A DNA stretch of 6,475 bases, taken from the NCBI GenBank assembly GCA_022560555.1, contig JADFSZ010000101.1, positions 1 to 6,475 on the forward strand. The letters run 5' to 3'. The notes under the pieces were generated by a model. The model did not search any database. It was not told the DNA's origin and saw only the letters and a list, made by a program, of their open reading frames with translations. The position numbers and the translations under genes are program-made. Shown here piece after piece: positions 1-6,475 of this stretch (position 1 is the stretch's first letter; each line of letters opens with the position of its first letter). The stretch comes from PVC group bacterium (GTDB lineage: Bacteria > GCA-001730085 > JADFSZ01).

Positions 1-1407
1 CGCGTTCTTCCATCCCTTGCGCATGGTATCGAGCTCAGTTTTGACATTTTTTTCCTTATCACGCAGCTTGGCCGCCATTTCGAAATCTTGATTTTTAATG
101 GAGGATTCTTTTTCGCTTTTGATTTTTTGAATGCGCTCCTCAAACTCTTTAATATTCGGAGGCGCGCTGGTGACCGCAAGACGAACCTTTGAACCGGCTT
201 CATCAATTACATCAATGGCTTTATCCGGCAAAAACCGCCCTGTAATGTAGCGATCGGACAATTTAACAGCAGCATCAATGGCTTCATCCAATATCTTAGC
301 TCGATGGTGTGCTTCAAACCGATCTCTCAAGCCTATAAGGATTTTGACTGTTTCGTCCACGGAAGGAGGATTAACTGTTATCGTCTGAAATCGTCTCTCT
401 AGAGCACGGTCTTTTTCTATGTTTTTACGATATTCATCAAATGTCGTAGCTCCGATACATTGAATTTCTCCGCGGGATAATGCTGGTTTCAAAATATTAG
501 AAGCGTCCATAGCCCCTTCGGCGGCTCCGGCACCGACAAGTGTATGTAATTCATCAATGAACGTGATAATGTTTTCGTTTTTCCGAAGCTCATCAAGAAC
601 AGCCTTGATGCGTTCCTCAAATTGACCGCGGTATTTAGTTCCGGCAATCATCAAGGCCAGATCAAGACAGACGATTCTTTTATTTCTTAAAATTTCCGGA
701 ACGTTTCCGGAAACAATTCTTTGGGCCAATCCCTCAACAATAGCGGTTTTTCCGACACCGGCTTCTCCCAAAAGAACAGGATTGTTCTTGGTCCGACGTC
801 CTAATATCTGCAAAACACGTTCAATCTCATGACTCCTGCCAATCACCGGATCCAATTTACCTTCCTGAGCCAGTTTCGTTAAATCAGTTCCAAACGCATC
901 TAGGGCCGGCGTTTTTGTTTTTTCGCTCTGTGTACCAACCGCGGTTTCCGTTCCTTGCATATTGAAGATCGCGGATCCCAGAAGCTTCATAATTTCATTT
1001 TTTACCTTCTCGAGAGTTATTCCGGAATTCTGCAGAACCATCGCAGCGACTCCCTCACCTTCCCTGATCAAACCAAGAAGAATATGCTCCGTTCCGACAT
1101 AATTATGGCCCAATTTCCGGGCTTCGTCCATGGACAGCTCAATCACCTTTTTGGCTTTTGGCGTAAATTCAACCTCCCCAACCTGAACAAGACTCGGACC
1201 TGTTTCAACAAGTTTTTCAATTTCTAATTTAATTCTTTCCAAACTGAATCCCAGTTTCTGTAAAACGGCAGCGGCCACACCTTGGCCCTCTTTGATGAGG
1301 CCGAGAAGAATATGCTCGGTGCCAATATAATTATGATTGTAATTTTTTGCTTCTTCTCTTGCTAAAACGAGAACTTTTCTGGCTCTTTCCGTAAAACGAT
1401 CGAACAT
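1..1407 (-). CDS. clpC: ATP-dependent Clp protease ATP-binding subunit ClpC (N-terminal 469 codons; 3' end lies beyond the window edge)
   Basis: The minus-strand frame is open from the ATG at 1407-1405 to position 1 (1407 nt, 469 codons). Translation starts [41 protein letters not shown]. The Clp_N repeat is duplicated ([12 protein letters not shown] and [12 protein letters not shown]). Walker A GEAGVGKT maps to 745-768 (checked by hand) and Walker B is [15 protein letters not shown]. The window ends in a UVR-like middle-domain segment ([14 protein letters not shown]). A GGAGGA Shine-Dalgarno sequence at 1412-1417 sits 4 nt upstream of the ATG. Confidence 0.95.
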
Positions 1408-1440
1408 AGTATCCTCCTCGTCGCTTCTCCCCAACCGGGG

Positions 1441-2502
1441 TTAATTCAATTGTGCCTGATCAAATAAATTTCTAATAAGAGACGCTCGTTTGACATCACG
1501 TTCATAAGAGTTCATTTCCCGTCCTTCTTGAAACTGGATGTGCCCCGGCTTCGTTAAAATCATCAAGACGGATAAAACCTTGCGGTCAATATCATGGATA
1601 TGCCCCAACCCAATACCGAGACGCACGGCAGACATCAGATTAATCGCCTCTTCTGAAGTCATAATCCGGCTGTGTTTCAACAAACCATATGCGCGCCATA
1701 TCCGATCCTCAATCTGAACCTTGGTTTCCTGCATAAGGATTTTCCGGGCACTTTGCTCATGCTCGATAACCTGTTTAACAATTCTCTCGATATTATCAAG
1801 GATATCAGCTTCGGAATGTCCGAGGGTTATCTGATTTGAAATTTGAAAAAAATCGCCGGTCGCTTCCGTTCCCTCTCCATGCAATCCTCTCACGGTTAAA
1901 CCAAGTTTCACAACGGCCTCGATGACTTTATTGATTTGCTTTGTCAAAACAAGGGCAGGTAAATGCATCATGACGCTGGCTCTCATGCCTGTTCCCGTAT
2001 TCGTCGGACACGCTGTGAGATATCCATATTTGACAGAAAACGCGAATTCCAAAACCCTTTCCAGCTCCGTGTCGATCTCGTCAACAACCTTCCATAACTC
2101 CTTAAGCTGAAATCCTTCCTTAATTCCCTGAAGACGAATATGATCCTCTTCATTGACCATCAGGCTGATGGTCTGAGACGGATTTACAACGATGAGTCTC
2201 TCTCCCTTAATTTCAATCAGATCTCGACTGATAAGATGCCTCTCAACCAAAACATTTTGGTCCACTTCGGATATTTTACTCACACTGACCAAAATCATCG
2301 ATGACAGCGATTTAGTTTTTTCAATGCCTTCACGGATCAGTTTGGCAGTATCCTTAAATGATTTTTCAGAAGCGACTGAGGTAAAGGACATACGCTCGAG
2401 ATTTCTCGCGACACGTATGCGCGATGACAAAACAATATCCGAGCTAGGCCCGTCTTTCGTCAGCCAATCCGCCGTATTGTGAAGGACTTCATGAAGATCC
2501 AT
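1441..2502 (-). CDS. mcsB: Protein arginine kinase McsB (ATP:guanido phosphotransferase family), 353 aa
   Basis: This is the lower part of track ORF 1441..2583. I place the start at the internal ATG at 2502 (MDLHEVLHNTADWLTKDGPSSDIVLSSRIRVARNLE). This matches the N-terminus I recall for Bacillus McsB (...GPESDIVLSSRIRLARN...). Phosphagen-kinase motifs are present: MVNEEDHIRLQ and GYLTACPTNTGTGMRASVMMHLPAL. The 27 extra codons in the track ORF are highly basic and lie inside mcsA in another frame. GGAG sits about 10 nt upstream of the ATG. Confidence 0.9.
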   Translation of the reverse strand: MDLHEVLHNTADWLTKDGPSSDIVLSSRIRVARNLERMSFTSVASEKSFKDTAKLIREGIEKTKSLSSMILVSVSKISEVDQNVLVERHLISRDLIEIKGERLIVVNPSQTISLMVNEEDHIRLQGIKEGFQLKELWKVVDEIDTELERVLEFAFSVKYGYLTACPTNTGTGMRASVMMHLPALVLTKQINKVIEAVVKLGLTVRGLHGEGTEATGDFFQISNQITLGHSEADILDNIERIVKQVIEHEQSARKILMQETKVQIEDRIWRAYGLLKHSRIMTSEEAINLMSAVRLGIGLGHIHDIDRKVLSVLMILTKPGHIQFQEGREMNSYERDVKRASLIRNLFDQAQLN

Positions 2503-2992
2503 GAGGCTCTGTCTCCAATTCTTTGATTTGATCACGGATTTTGGCCGCTTCCTCGTATTTCTCGTTTTGCACCGCGTTCTCAAGCAATGAGCGCAAAACC
2601 TGTATTTTGGTCATCCTCTGAGTTTTTTTGGATTTTTTGTGCAGTGTTTTTCCCAAATGCTGCTTGCTGCCATGAATTCGCTTCAATAATTTATCAAGCT
2701 GATCAGAAAAAGTCTCATAACATTGCGAACATCCTAGGCGGCCGATTTTTTTAAAGTTCTGAAAATTTAATCCGCATCCCGGGCACTTCGGATCTCCTTG
2801 CTCAAGTTCCGTCCCCTCCTCTGATAAATCCGCTAAACTCGACAACAGTTCTGACACAAGAAACTTGTGAGATGAACCCAGTGAATCTTTTTTTTTGGCA
2901 CAAGCTTCACATAAATGACTTTCAGTGACATTTTCATCTAAGATCTGCGTGTAATGGATCGTTGCTTCTTTGGGGCATAAATCGCACTTCAT
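2489..2992 (-). CDS. mcsA: McsA-like activator of McsB (two CxxC zinc-finger pairs plus a C-terminal UVR motif), 167 aa
   Basis: This is track ORF 2489..2992. The first pair of CxxC motifs is MKCDLCPKEATIHYTQ...HLCEACAKK. The second pair is KCPGCGLNFQNFKKIGRLGCSQCYETF, which closely parallels the Bacillus McsA segment as I recall it. A UVR-type helix (NEKYEEAAKIRDQIKELE) lies at the C-terminus. The gene sits directly upstream of mcsB and overlaps it. Confidence 0.85.
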   Translation of the reverse strand: MKCDLCPKEATIHYTQILDENVTESHLCEACAKKKDSLGSSHKFLVSELLSSLADLSEEGTELEQGDPKCPGCGLNFQNFKKIGRLGCSQCYETFSDQLDKLLKRIHGSKQHLGKTLHKKSKKTQRMTKIQVLRSLLENAVQNEKYEEAAKIRDQIKELETEPHGSS

Positions 2993-3061
2993 GGACTGAA
3001 AACCTTTACTTGGAGCTTTTTCAATATGCTGTATCTACACCAATAAAATTTAATGCATACG

Positions 3062-3090
3062 AGTATTTTAATAACTATCAGAAATTACAA
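3062..3090 (-). promoter_or_regulatory. Alternative weaker promoter candidate (TTGTAA-N17-AATACT)
   Basis: On the minus strand, TTGTAA (3090-3085) is followed by a 17-nt spacer and then AATACT (3067-3062). Each hexamer matches consensus at 4 of 6 positions. This could be a second start site or a chance match in AT-rich DNA. Confidence 0.2.
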
Positions 3091-3123
3091 GACTTAAATC
3101 GTATCCAAAAACAATACTGCGTG

Positions 3124-3132
3124 ATTATAGCA
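3124..3132 (-). promoter_or_regulatory. Candidate sigma70-type extended -10 promoter (TGCTATAAT) for mcsA-mcsB-clpC
   Basis: The minus strand reads ...ttagattgTGcTATAATcacgc.... This gives a perfect TATAAT (3129-3124) preceded by a TGn extension (3132-3130). No good -35 hexamer is present (CTTTTA at 17-nt spacing), which is tolerable for extended -10 promoters. The implied start near 3117 would give a leader of about 125 nt before the mcsA ATG. This is a motif match only. Confidence 0.4.
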
Positions 3133-3195
3133 CAATCTAAATTAAATAAAAGGGATCTTTTCGGTAAGTACGTGAAGTCATTCGGCTTGGGTTTT

Positions 3196-6100
3196 TTAGC
3201 CAAGTTGCATTTCAACCAACTTAACCCGCCCCTGACGGATATCATAAACAGACTTCCCTCGTAAAAATCCACAGGCAATGTCTTCGGTGCGTCCGTCACG
3301 CCAAGTCAATGTGAACCGTTGAACTTTAACCCGTTTGGCTCCAAAGGTTGGTTTTCTTTTTGGATTGGAATATATAAACAACGTGTCTTTGAGCGTAACA
3401 AATGCCAAACTGTTCTTAGGAACTAAAACACCCTGAAAGACATGTTTTTTATTCGTAAAGAGCCACGCGTCCAGAGAAGGCTCCGGGATAAATTGCAGTT
3501 TTTTGTCCTGGTCCAAACGAAAAGGTTGGGCCCCCAACATCATCAAAATCCAAATATGAATCCACTCCGCTGTTGACCCGCTCAAACGCGCGACAAAACC
3601 ATTGCCGTGCAGCAAATCATCCGGATAAGCCGAACTGCAGATAAAAGAAGAATTCTCAAGAATACTTCTCCCGTATATTTTTGGATCCATAAATGGAACC
3701 AAGCATGTCTTAATATCATTATAAAATTCCCTTGTGAGTCCCGATTTCAAAATCTCCAAAAGATATTTATATTCCATATGCATCCATATGGACTCGTTCT
3801 CCAGCCAGCCCGGGGAAAATATTTGAATCCGTCCGATTTCCGGAGGTTCCTTGGCCATCGACGAAGACACTTTATACATCTTGAGCTTCTTATCAAACAA
3901 GGGACTCCTTTTAATCGCCTGATAAAGACGTTTCGATTTCGTATCGTTTTTAAGAATCCGAAACAGATGAACGGGGCCCTCTAAGAACAAGGGCAAGGCC
4001 TGATGTTTAAAGCCACTTATATTCATGCATGGGTACCCTTTTAGGTTTGTCTTTTCGCTTGGCTGAAAATCTTTGGCTGTGGATCGAAAATACGTGCTCA
4101 TCACATGACTCTTAGGGGCTTTGGCCCTCTCAAGACCATTCTGAAGCTTTTCGTCCGCTTTGTCTAAAAGCGGCTTTATCATCTCTAAGCTCCATGGCAC
4201 AAAATCCCCATTGAGGCCCATACGGATATCTTCACGAAATTTTTCCTTCGCAGAAGTTGATGCCTCCCAATAGTCGTAATGTTTTGAAGATGCATGATTC
4301 CCCTTCCAATGATCGAGAGCCGTTTCGATTTTATTTAAGAACTCTGACAATTCTCGAGGAATGTTGAAAATATACTCATCCGGCAACGAAAGATCTTCCA
4401 AATTCTCTTTTAAGCTTCGAATCATCCGGACAAGTTCACACGTCTCCGCCGTTGAGGAGCCGAAAAGCCCCGGAAGTCCGTTCAAGGAATCATTCCAATT
4501 CGGTTTATCCGATTCCATTTCGATGCCAATGCCCTCAGCATCCAAAGACGCGATCTTATTTGCAAATATAAATAAAATCTTCGTGAACAAATTCGTCCGA
4601 TAGATTTCTCCATGACCGCTGCCTAAGCGCAATTTATTCTTGTCGTAAGACCTGCTTTCGATCAATTCGGTTTTTTTGGGGTCATGAACGACACTCCCAA
4701 ACTGCCGGACTTGACCTTCCCAAAAAACATATTTTTCACTTCTAGGCACAACACGATGGTCATTATCGTAAAATGTATAGACAGCTCGATCGAGCAGCAA
4801 TTCCCTTAACCGATCCGGATAAACAGAAAGAAAACTCTCTATAAGATCATTATTATAGTGCCAATGGTCCGACCAAAACCCTTCTCCATGATCCGCTAAT
4901 TCTTCCCTGTGGCACGTTTCCAGTATTTTTGCCAAAAAGATTTTGGGATCTACTTTTAATTGAATTCTCTTTTGAGTAATAAATGTCAGCAGATCACCAG
5001 GCATAAAACTTACTTGCACGAACTCCTTGATCAACTTCTGTTTATTTTTGGCAACACACCGCGCAATAGCTCGATTTAATTTCTTTTTATCGTATACCGA
5101 AAATGCTGTTCCCCGGATAATAAGTGGATTGTAACCGTCAGCCTGGCTTAAATTCAAAAAGTTAACCAAATGACTACTCTTAACATCCGCATTAAACCAA
5201 ACATCATTGCGGCGGTTTTGATTCACGTCGCGATAATTCCCATTTCCTTGCGAATAAAATGTGGGCGCTAAAACAAAATAATTGTAATCCCTTTCAAGGT
5301 CTCCATGTTTGCGACTATAGACATTGATAGCGATCGGGCCCCTATTTGTTTGCAATGAAACTGGGAGTCCTCCACGTAAGATATTATCAAGAAATGTATA
5401 GGACGAATAAAGATTGAATTCCTTTGATGAGCTTTCTGTCAATGCAAAATTCTTGATCTCATCAATGATCGTTTTATTGCATTCTGCTTTTTTCTCAATA
5501 AAATTCCTTTGAGTCACTTGGCGGACAATTTTATTCAGTTGTGTTTCACTATGCGCATGACCGAATAAAGAAACGATATTTTTTTCACCTTTTGGTTTCA
5601 ATAGAAACCGAGTATATCCCATTGCCGATGGTGTACGATTACTCGCCTGTTGGCGCTTTGGAACCTTAAAGCTGCCTTGGCGAAACTTCACTGGAGCCAG
5701 GAAATCGCAAGCGTCCCCAAAAATATGCGTATTCTCGATGATAGGATCAAGCAATGCCCTGTTCTTTGATTTTGGATCAAAACTAAAAAAGAAATTTCCC
5801 TCCTCAATATGCGTTACTCTCGGCGTATCAGAAACTTCAACACGAAGCTGATAGTACGGGGCTTTTTTACTAAGATTACGAACCTGAACCCATGCCTCGG
5901 CAGTGCGCGCTATATTTTTGTTAAGAACATCCGTAAGGCCGTAAGGAACCAAAGCGGGAAGTCCATCAATAATTTCAGCACGGTAAGATTTCCTTCCTGT
6001 GTTTTTGATCGTAATACTGCGCACAAGGCTAGCATAGGGTTCCTCGGGAAGAGTAAAATAATTGACTGTAGCGGTTAAACCTAGATCAAGATTAATTTCT

Positions 6101-6348
6101 TGCAGCGTCAAATCATGCGCTGAAATCGTCAATGTTTGCTTCTTCTTAAAACCGGTTCCTTCTAAATGGTTTTGAAACGGCTCCCAATAGATCGTCTTTG
6201 ATCCAGATGTTAGTTTGATAAACGTGCGGAAGCCCTGTAATGACAATTGCCGCGCTGCGACTGATCCTGCCGGACCGGCTCCCACCACCACCGCATCCCA
6301 GCTTATGTGTGTCGCGTCATCAAGGTCAATTGTGGCGGAGATGGTCAT
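3196..6348 (-). CDS. Large GH94-clan (GH94/GH149/GH161-like) glycoside phosphorylase-like protein with a foreign-looking FAD-binding N-terminal fragment; about 1050 aa as a single ORF
   Basis: This is track ORF 3196..6360. I prefer the ATG at 6348 because GGTGGAG sits 6 nt upstream, whereas the GTG at 6360 lies inside that Shine-Dalgarno sequence. Four motifs match what I recall from Cellvibrio gilvus cellobiose phosphorylase, in the same order. YRDVNQN (5215-5235) matches FRDSNQD, the phosphate/substrate arginine. NWNDSLNG (from 4500 downward; W622-N623-D624) matches DWNDCLN, the catalytic acid. PGWLENESIWMH (His codon at 3778-3780) matches PGYKENGGIFCH, the phosphate histidine. LSGSTAEW (3562-3582) matches LTGTAAW. 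The spacing from His to SGST (about 68 aa) also fits GH94. Substrate specificity cannot be read from the sequence. Confidence 0.8.
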   Translation of the reverse strand: MTISATIDLDDATHISWDAVVVGAGPAGSVAARQLSLQGFRTFIKLTSGSKTIYWEPFQNHLEGTGFKKKQTLTISAHDLTLQEINLDLGLTATVNYFTLPEEPYASLVRSITIKNTGRKSYRAEIIDGLPALVPYGLTDVLNKNIARTAEAWVQVRNLSKKAPYYQLRVEVSDTPRVTHIEEGNFFFSFDPKSKNRALLDPIIENTHIFGDACDFLAPVKFRQGSFKVPKRQQASNRTPSAMGYTRFLLKPKGEKNIVSLFGHAHSETQLNKIVRQVTQRNFIEKKAECNKTIIDEIKNFALTESSSKEFNLYSSYTFLDNILRGGLPVSLQTNRGPIAINVYSRKHGDLERDYNYFVLAPTFYSQGNGNYRDVNQNRRNDVWFNADVKSSHLVNFLNLSQADGYNPLIIRGTAFSVYDKKKLNRAIARCVAKNKQKLIKEFVQVSFMPGDLLTFITQKRIQLKVDPKIFLAKILETCHREELADHGEGFWSDHWHYNNDLIESFLSVYPDRLRELLLDRAVYTFYDNDHRVVPRSEKYVFWEGQVRQFGSVVHDPKKTELIESRSYDKNKLRLGSGHGEIYRTNLFTKILFIFANKIASLDAEGIGIEMESDKPNWNDSLNGLPGLFGSSTAETCELVRMIRSLKENLEDLSLPDEYIFNIPRELSEFLNKIETALDHWKGNHASSKHYDYWEASTSAKEKFREDIRMGLNGDFVPWSLEMIKPLLDKADEKLQNGLERAKAPKSHVMSTYFRSTAKDFQPSEKTNLKGYPCMNISGFKHQALPLFLEGPVHLFRILKNDTKSKRLYQAIKRSPLFDKKLKMYKVSSSMAKEPPEIGRIQIFSPGWLENESIWMHMEYKYLLEILKSGLTREFYNDIKTCLVPFMDPKIYGRSILENSSFICSSAYPDDLLHGNGFVARLSGSTAEWIHIWILMMLGAQPFRLDQDKKLQFIPEPSLDAWLFTNKKHVFQGVLVPKNSLAFVTLKDTLFIYSNPKRKPTFGAKRVKVQRFTLTWRDGRTEDIACGFLRGKSVYDIRQGRVKLVEMQLG
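6223..6348 (-). other. 5' fragment of an FAD/NAD(P)-dependent oxidoreductase gene (Rossmann beta-alpha-beta with GxGxxG), truncated after about 42 codons and fused in frame to the phosphorylase body
   Basis: Translation is MTISATIDLDDATHISWDAVVVGAGPAGSVAARQLSLQGFRT. The stretch DAVVVGAGPAGSxAA...G is the classic dinucleotide-binding start of geranylgeranyl-reductase or monooxygenase-type flavoproteins. The GAGPAG codons map to 6265-6282. The expected continuation (hydrophobic beta2 strand ending in Glu/Asp, e.g. LLLEK) is absent. The sequence instead switches to FIKLTSGSKTIYWEPF. Codon style is GC-rich here and AT-rich beyond the switch. Confidence 0.6.
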
Positions 6349-6475
6349 GTTGGTCTCCACCTGAGGAGAAACCGTTGTGGCCAGTGTAGCGAAACGGTCG
6401 TTTTTTCCATTCCAGCTTGTCTCGCAAGCAGCAAAGCTTCGTCAGTCGTGAAGGCTGCCTCCACGGATAATGGCC
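6345..6475 (-). CDS. Possible 3' end of an upstream ORF (unknown product), with its stop overlapping the downstream ATG (ATGA)
   Basis: The minus-strand frame is open from the window edge: ...PLSVEAAFTTDEALLLARQAGMEKTTVSLHWPQRFLLRWRPT*. Its TGA (6347-6345) overlaps the ATG at 6348-6346 by 4 nt, a typical translational-coupling arrangement. The sequence is too short for a family call. A different frame ends earlier (..AIIRGGSLHD*), so even the reading frame is uncertain. Confidence 0.3.
   Translation of the reverse strand, partial: PLSVEAAFTTDEALLLARQAGMEKTTVSLHWPQRFLLRWRPT

Follow-up and report, generated by a model that had tools for sequence, protein, structure and literature searches.

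Contig JADFSZ010000101.1 of a PVC group bacterium (assembly GCA_022560555.1), of which nucleotides (nt) 1–6,475 form the window analysed here, carries an open reading frame (ORF) in which the start of a flavoprotein gene runs in frame into a glycoside phosphorylase gene, raising the question of whether this ORF encodes a natural fusion protein, is the scar of a recombination event or is a product of assembly. Alignment with independent contigs divides the window into a mosaic of three pieces, assigned as segment X (6244–6475), segment A (4871–6243) and segment B (1–4891). The whole is very probably an in silico chimera of three unrelated genomes from one metagenome, made by a de Bruijn graph assembler with a k-mer length of 21.

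A hybrid reading frame with a flavoprotein head and a GH161 body

The ORF lies on the minus strand, running from a GTG at 6360 or an ATG at 6348 to a stop codon at 3196–3198 (1054 or 1050 amino acids, aa), and its N-terminus reads MTISATIDLDDATHISWDAVVVGAGPAGSVAARQLSLQGFRT, followed by FIKLTSGSKTIYWEPF. Its first ~40 residues are those of a flavin adenine dinucleotide (FAD)-binding Rossmann fold and the rest is a 5′-truncated phosphorylase. A Shine-Dalgarno sequence, GGTGGAG, is found 6 nt 5′ of the ATG, and the end of an upstream ORF fragment, …WPQRFLLRWRPT, shares an ATGA stop/start overlap with the ORF. The original prediction, made from the letters of the window, had described a low-GC phosphorylase gene, truncated at its 5′ end, joined in frame to the beginning of a high-GC flavoprotein gene. 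All its elements were confirmed: the reading frame, the Rossmann-type start, the loss of the phosphorylase 5′ end and the step in GC content, together with the Shine-Dalgarno sequence, the ATG and the ATGA overlap.

The hand counts of G+C behind that prediction, 133 of 235 nt in 6241–6475 and 48 of 120 nt in 6121–6240, proved exact on recount. By segment, GC content is 56.9% in X, 40.1% in A and 42.8% in B, and within the ORF the GC content of third codon positions is 0.60 in the X head, 0.37 in the A part and 0.46 in the B part. Windows of 232 nt taken from 1–6243 have a mean GC content of 42.2% (standard deviation 3.2%, maximum 49.1%), and since the 56.9% of 6244–6475 exceeds every one of them, the step is far beyond chance.

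The head carries the β1-GxGxxG-αA dinucleotide-binding motif (VVVGAGPAGSVAARQL), and residues 17–48 (GTG-start numbering) are the only span matched by Pfam and NCBIfam dinucleotide-binding models, except for one GIDA alignment that reaches residue 69; in the Pfam scan of the ORF, no flavoprotein similarity was found past residue 48 apart from this alignment. The matching models include NAD_binding_8 (E = 2e-4, on the fragment), FAD_binding_3 and TIGR02032 of the geranylgeranyl-reductase (GG-reductase) superfamily (GG-red-SF, E = 3e-5); owing to the shortness of the fragment, all of them score under their cut-offs. Used as the query of an exhaustive phmmer search, the 42-aa head returned 123 relatives, every one a stand-alone flavoprotein, with full-length members of 370–460 aa and the longest of 588 aa. 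After GxGxxG, these relatives follow the pattern (A/S)xAAR(Q/E)L(A/S)xxGxR(V/T)LL(V/L)(D/E), which the window fits up to T, reading RTFIKLTS where the relatives read RTLLVD/E; the residue after T is Leu in 107 of the 123 and Phe in none. The head thus lacks the β2 strand ending in Asp or Glu (LLVD/LLVE), in agreement with the predicted stop of the fold before this acidic residue, and it also lacks the remaining ~360 flavoprotein residues.

A search with a hybrid query led to P0258, a 399-aa protein with the head MTISATIDFLNATHTRWDAVVVGAGPAGSIAAQQLSLQGFRTLLVD, which is identical to the window head at 35 of 42 positions. The contig encoding it, L007 (GC 54%), is 77.9% identical in DNA to window positions 6221–6473 and shares with the window the tail of a methyltransferase gene, the ATGA overlap and the Shine-Dalgarno sequence, continuing into an intact flavoprotein gene and then a type III polyketide synthase (PKS) gene. 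The best named relative of the head comes from a Planctomycetaceae metagenome-assembled genome. A word-index protein search with the 42-aa head gave no candidates, a weak negative with so short a query; P0258 and a second protein, P0121, share many five-residue words with the head although this search missed them, and relatives of this kind were found by the phmmer and hybrid-query searches.

Segment X accordingly has two parts, both on the minus strand. The first (6345–6475) covers the 3′-terminal stretch of a class I S-adenosylmethionine-dependent methyltransferase gene, cut by the window end, with the translation …PLSVEAAFTTDEALLLARQAGMEKTTVSLHWPQRFLLRWRPT and a TGA that overlaps the next ATG; its tail aligns with those of the methyltransferases upstream of the flavoprotein in L007 and in two further contigs, L003 and L006, and the L003 homologue is matched by Pfam Methyltransf_25/12. 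The second part (6244–6348) comprises the 35 opening codons, which are specific to the flavoprotein parent, MTISATIDLDDATHISWDAVVVGAGPAGSVAARQL, and on the Rossmann matches, the phmmer relatives and the L007 DNA alignment it is assigned as the start of a stand-alone FAD-dependent oxidoreductase of ~400 aa from a methyltransferase/flavoprotein/type III PKS cluster. A cluster of a methyltransferase, an FAD oxidoreductase and a type III PKS of the alkylresorcinol type is conserved in Gemmatimonadota and Planctomycetota contigs (L003, 3976–6979; L007, 1–2380), and in the clusters of L003, L006 and L007 the flavoprotein gene begins right next to the methyltransferase stop codon or overlaps it; only the methyltransferase and then the flavoprotein are visible in L006, a short contig. 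L003 and L006, found with a degenerate DNA pattern for WDAVVVGAGPAGSVAARQL that returned one contig each from GTDB genomes and JGI metagenomes, were considered as parents of X and rejected: they match the window in gene order but show no similarity to it in DNA, and are Gemmatimonadota-type homologues. The contig of the window itself is absent from both collections.

The body of the ORF was searched against protein collections, giving 4900 matches at E ≤ 0.001; counts on 120 homologues below refer to the best 120 of these 4900. These 120 are 47–84% identical to the window ORF, nearly all 1070–1120 aa long and mostly from Omnitrophota or PVC-group metagenomes. P0001, the native 1090-aa protein of the lineage that supplied segment A (lineage A), is similar over residues 18–996 to the chains of PDB entries 9qqk (GH161A), 9sr2 and 9h8v (E~1e-216), which places the enzyme in family GH161 and not in GH94 (cellobiose/chitobiose phosphorylases), the family originally proposed. 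No Pfam model of GH94 matches the window ORF (E ≤ 1) or P0001 (E ≤ 0.001), and a precomputed match to the GH94 model PF06165 exists for only 2 of the 120 homologues. The NCBIfam model of the β-1,3-glucan phosphorylase family GH149, NF058639, gives 102.7 bits (E = 1.3e-29) against a cut-off of 1150 bits, indicating a clan-level relationship only. GH161 is grouped with GH94 and GH149 in clan GH-Q (PMC6484121), and this common clan accounts for the earlier impression of a GH94-type enzyme. Pfam scans of both the full ORF and P0001 returned no glycoside-phosphorylase domain, so domain boundaries were set by homologue alignment and the PDB sequence search; of the domain models that the original prediction had looked to, those for FAD/NAD Rossmann folds thus matched, under their cut-offs and within residues 17–48, while those for GH94 did not. 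The searches also revealed a very large clade of ~1090-aa GH161-like proteins in Omnitrophota and PVC-group metagenomes, mostly annotated as hypothetical. The founding paper described GH161 mainly from Gram-positive bacteria and heterokonts (PMC6484121), so that the present clade appears under-described.

The full-length homologues all start …KYxLxxxGxFVIENYNxSKPFSNFFPGIAGxWGIPMWVFYVNRGQCIASFG…FQPANKSYRLTSLQGFRTFIK…, with an FFPGIAG-type motif in 109 of the 120, close variants of it in the other full-length sequences and two sequences that are partial. SLQGFRT is present in this conserved N-terminus and is therefore native to the phosphorylase; in P0001 it begins at residue 83, and the Trp used as a landmark in the original prediction is residue 102. 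The window ORF enters GH161 at native residue 83, so that ~82 native residues are missing, including the conserved FFPGIAGxWGIPMWxFYVNRGQ block, rather than the 60–70 first estimated.

These comparisons bear directly on whether the ORF might represent a natural, undescribed architecture, a phosphorylase family with a native N-terminal Rossmann segment. The uninterrupted ORF itself is the sole observation in favour of this explanation, which we regard as refuted. None of the 120 homologues has GxGxxG in its first 60 residues or a Rossmann N-terminus, and the full-length ones all carry the conserved native N-terminus; none of the 123 head relatives is longer than 588 aa; the Rossmann piece ends before β2 is complete; and segment A is nearly identical in nucleotides (2 differences in 1373) to a gene with the native N-terminus.

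Three segments and their two junctions

Segment A (4871–6243, minus strand) is, by its alignment with contig L001 (ENA ERZ23486746 scaffold_22547), an internal 1373-nt piece of a lineage A GH161 gene covering native residues 83 to ~540. It differs from L001 at 2 of 1373 nt, and L001 holds the intact 1090-aa gene. A blastn comparison of the window with L001 gave a single block, 4814–6243 at 98.7%, and nothing else substantial. The intact gene occurs in five independent contigs, L001 and four others, in each case with the native N-terminus and an A-type C-terminal half. The proposal to look for homologues with the N-terminus of the hybrid therefore yielded a clear answer, with none of the 120 carrying a Rossmann head and five lineage A contigs carrying the native start.

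The first part of segment B (3196–4891, minus strand, ending in the stop codon at 3196–3198) comes from another GH161 gene, that of lineage B (‘PVC group bacterium’), of which it forms the 3′ half according to alignment with contigs L002 and L004. Window positions 1–4891 are 97.9% identical to L002 (GCA_022561295.1, “PVC group bacterium”) and 97.85% identical to L004 (ENA ERZ23486746 scaffold_27824), and upstream of the A/B junction L002 and L004 match each other and differ from the window. The same switch is seen in the protein: hybrid residues ~36–495 are 100% identical to P0001 and 30–60% identical to its lineage B counterpart, P0002, whereas residues ~500–1050 are ~45% identical to P0001 and ~99% identical to P0002. 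Over the GH161 gene as a whole, lineages A and B are only ~45–50% identical in protein. The two co-occur, sample ERZ23486746 being the source of both L001 and L004. A and B might be viewed as paralogues within one genome, but this is unlikely, given that the window diverges from the ERZ23486746 contigs by 0.15% in A (2/1373 nt) and by 2.1% in B (~105/4892 nt), and it would leave the X join unexplained. Exact-protein look-ups with the hybrid ORF, using either start codon, found no copy, and the arrangement of the window occurs nowhere among the homologues.

The junction between X and A had been placed at about 6222/6223. Identity to L001 sets in at 6243 and extends towards lower coordinates, and alignments with L001, P0258 and L007 define a 21-nt overlap at 6223–6243 (minus strand), TCATTACAGGGCTTCCGCACG, which encodes SLQGFRT. 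P0258 reads …QQLSLQGFRTLLVD, with SLQGFRT native there and followed by LLVD, and the L007 DNA alignment spans the stretch with 17 of 21 positions identical. The crossover would therefore lie somewhere inside 6223–6243, the 21 nt being native to the phosphorylase parent and plausibly native to the flavoprotein parent, and the boundary is a stretch common to both rather than a single step.

The original prediction was of a two-way mosaic; its X/A junction stands, but a second junction at 4871–4891 had been missed, making the mosaic three-way. Alignment of the window with L001, L002 and L004 shows a 21-nt overlap there (minus strand), TCATGGAGAAGGGTTTTGGTC, within the conserved motif HGEGFWSDHW. 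The exact run is 24 nt between L001 and L002/L004 and 21 nt between the window and L002/L004, and the switch falls on the sole long exact stretch common to both lineages in this region. The base after the stretch, window position 4870, is G on the minus strand and A in L001, L002 and L004, a difference that is either a strain single-nucleotide polymorphism or an error at the join.

L002 and L004 themselves both break off within the GH161 gene, at distances of 724 nt and 134 nt, respectively, on the upstream side of the A/B junction. These breaks suggest assembly trouble in the gene and a tangled graph, probably from co-occurring GH161 homologues with common k-mers.

Assembly, recombination or amplification

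We favour an assembly chimera because the segments have better-matching or native continuations in independent contigs and because both joins fall on 21-nt stretches. Differing continuations are documented for A in L001 and four further contigs and for B in L002 and L004, while for X they are seen only through a 78%-identical relative; the junction overlaps are short, A/B having an exact run of 21 nt in the window and of 24 nt when the reference contigs are compared, and X/A the 21 nt encoding SLQGFRT. In line with this, the segments differ in GC content and, for A and B, sharply in divergence from the reference contigs, and the hybrid architecture was seen in none of the homologues or head relatives. 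The default smallest k is 21 in both MEGAHIT and metaSPAdes. An assembler with this smallest k would have walked from one genome to the next via a single shared 21-mer, and at low coverage, with no competing branch, the chimeric path could have been kept into the final contig, in which case the flavoprotein-phosphorylase fusion protein would be absent from any cell. Shared k-mers between low-abundance genomes have been reviewed as a cause of chimeric metagenome contigs (PMC7299287).

Several points weigh against an assembly origin. Both joins are in frame, so that a single long ORF remains, with an ATG and a well-formed Shine-Dalgarno sequence, as in a selected natural fusion; a preserved frame is, however, automatic wherever two genes encode one and the same peptide across their overlap. 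The artefact is deduced from comparative evidence. The exact 21-mer is only plausibly present in the true parent of X, the closest relative of which is 78% identical in DNA. Short-homology recombination at 21–24 nt is, moreover, biologically possible.

This last point leads to the reading of the window as a genuine and very recent mosaic, in which a lineage B organism gained a lineage A GH161 fragment and a fragment of a planctomycete cluster by short-homology recombination over 21–24 nt. The co-occurrence of A and B in at least one sample, microhomology at both junctions long enough for recombination systems, and 1050 uninterrupted codons that start from an ATG preceded by a Shine-Dalgarno sequence would all fit such a history, yet three lineages would have to be brought together within 1.4 kb by two rare events, each independent of the other, and these would have to be extremely recent, as the A segment is 99.85% identical to the free-living A population. 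In addition, the join is absent from 5.8 billion protein clusters (~15 billion sequences), in which both parents are seen repeatedly, and a product without essential conserved parts of both enzymes would have no apparent selective advantage. We consider a genuine mosaic improbable; the form it would take, an illegitimate or homology-facilitated recombination leaving a disrupted or hybrid gene expressed from foreign flavoprotein start signals, has an equally slim chance.

A physical chimera made in the laboratory, by template switching at short identities during polymerase chain reaction (PCR) or multiple-displacement amplification and then assembled faithfully, is somewhat less probable still. 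It would account for joins at short exact identities, and the A/B join, which falls at corresponding places in two orthologues, resembles those of PCR chimeras. Two events would be needed, however, on one molecule, at a depth sufficient to assemble 6.5 kb; chimeras from multiple-displacement amplification are typically inverted, and these joins are not; and nothing in the data calls for such a step beyond the assembly explanation. Among the causes that had originally been listed, an assembly chimera is thus the one favoured, a recombination scar is improbable and a natural architecture is refuted.

With an assembly chimera as the preferred explanation, the main value of this contig is one of caution. 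Annotation would record it as a new “flavoprotein-phosphorylase fusion”, complete with a credible start site, and taxonomic binning would be distorted by the presence of three lineages within 6.5 kb. It also illustrates that frame-preserving chimeras are possible between unrelated genes, through the same short peptide encoded by the same codons or through a common motif such as HGEGFWSDHW. If the fusion protein existed, its flavoprotein portion would be limited to β1, the GxGxxG loop and helix A, its GH161 portion would be deprived of the most conserved N-terminal block, and because essential parts of both enzymes are missing, we infer that neither activity would be expected. In the doubtful event that the join is true, it would represent an unusual inter-phylum microhomology recombination, with a PVC GH161 gene rebuilt from a ~50%-diverged co-resident lineage and a planctomycete polyketide cluster, but nothing in the data requires this. 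The “fusion protein” is almost certainly not a real feature and should not be taken as biology.

Downstream genes and relation to known systems

The second part of segment B (1–2992) lies immediately downstream of the GH161 gene and carries an operon, all on the minus strand, of mcsA (2489–2992, NCBIfam McsA), mcsB (1441–2502, NCBIfam McsB) and the 5′ part of clpC (1–1407, ClpC-like translation), which runs off the window. L002 and L004 (‘PVC group bacterium’) show an identical order, by which these genes are assigned as native downstream neighbours of GH161 in lineage B. No ctsR gene was seen beside mcsA-mcsB-clpC in the window. Exact-protein look-ups found McsA, only on contigs of other strains, and gave no match on record for McsB; in L004 and a further contig, L005, McsA shows 100% protein identity but only ~98% DNA identity. 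From the stop codon of the GH161 gene to the first codon of mcsA, the spacer (2993–3195) is AT-rich, with 31–34% GC in 200-nt windows, and a consensus scan of it found no sigma-70-like promoter and no intrinsic terminator.

Compared with known inter-genome chimeric contigs from de Bruijn graph assemblies, the window shows a genome switch at 21-nt exact overlaps, an abrupt change in composition, differing native continuations and a short contig with the foreign piece (232 nt) at its end; the odd length of 6475 nt suggests that the window is such a contig in its entirety. The usual chimeric contigs join close strains or species, whereas here one join links ~50%-identical orthologues and the other unrelated genes, the 21-mers would be chance or motif-driven, and both joins keep the frame and mimic a fusion gene. 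The head resembles the stand-alone NAD(P)/FAD-dependent oxidoreductases (GG-reductase superfamily) of the Planctomycetota/Gemmatimonadota cluster, as represented by P0258 and L007, in 35 of 42 head residues, the methyltransferase tail, the ATGA overlap and the Shine-Dalgarno sequence, but only the first 35–42 residues of such a protein are in the window, with β2 and ~360 residues absent. The body of the ORF, in turn, is GH161 sequence like that of the β-1,3-glucan phosphorylases of this family, PapP of Paenibacillus polymyxa and the chains of PDB 9qqk, 9sr2 and 9h8v, and it differs from these in that the window copy is without native residues 1–82 and is spliced from two lineages.

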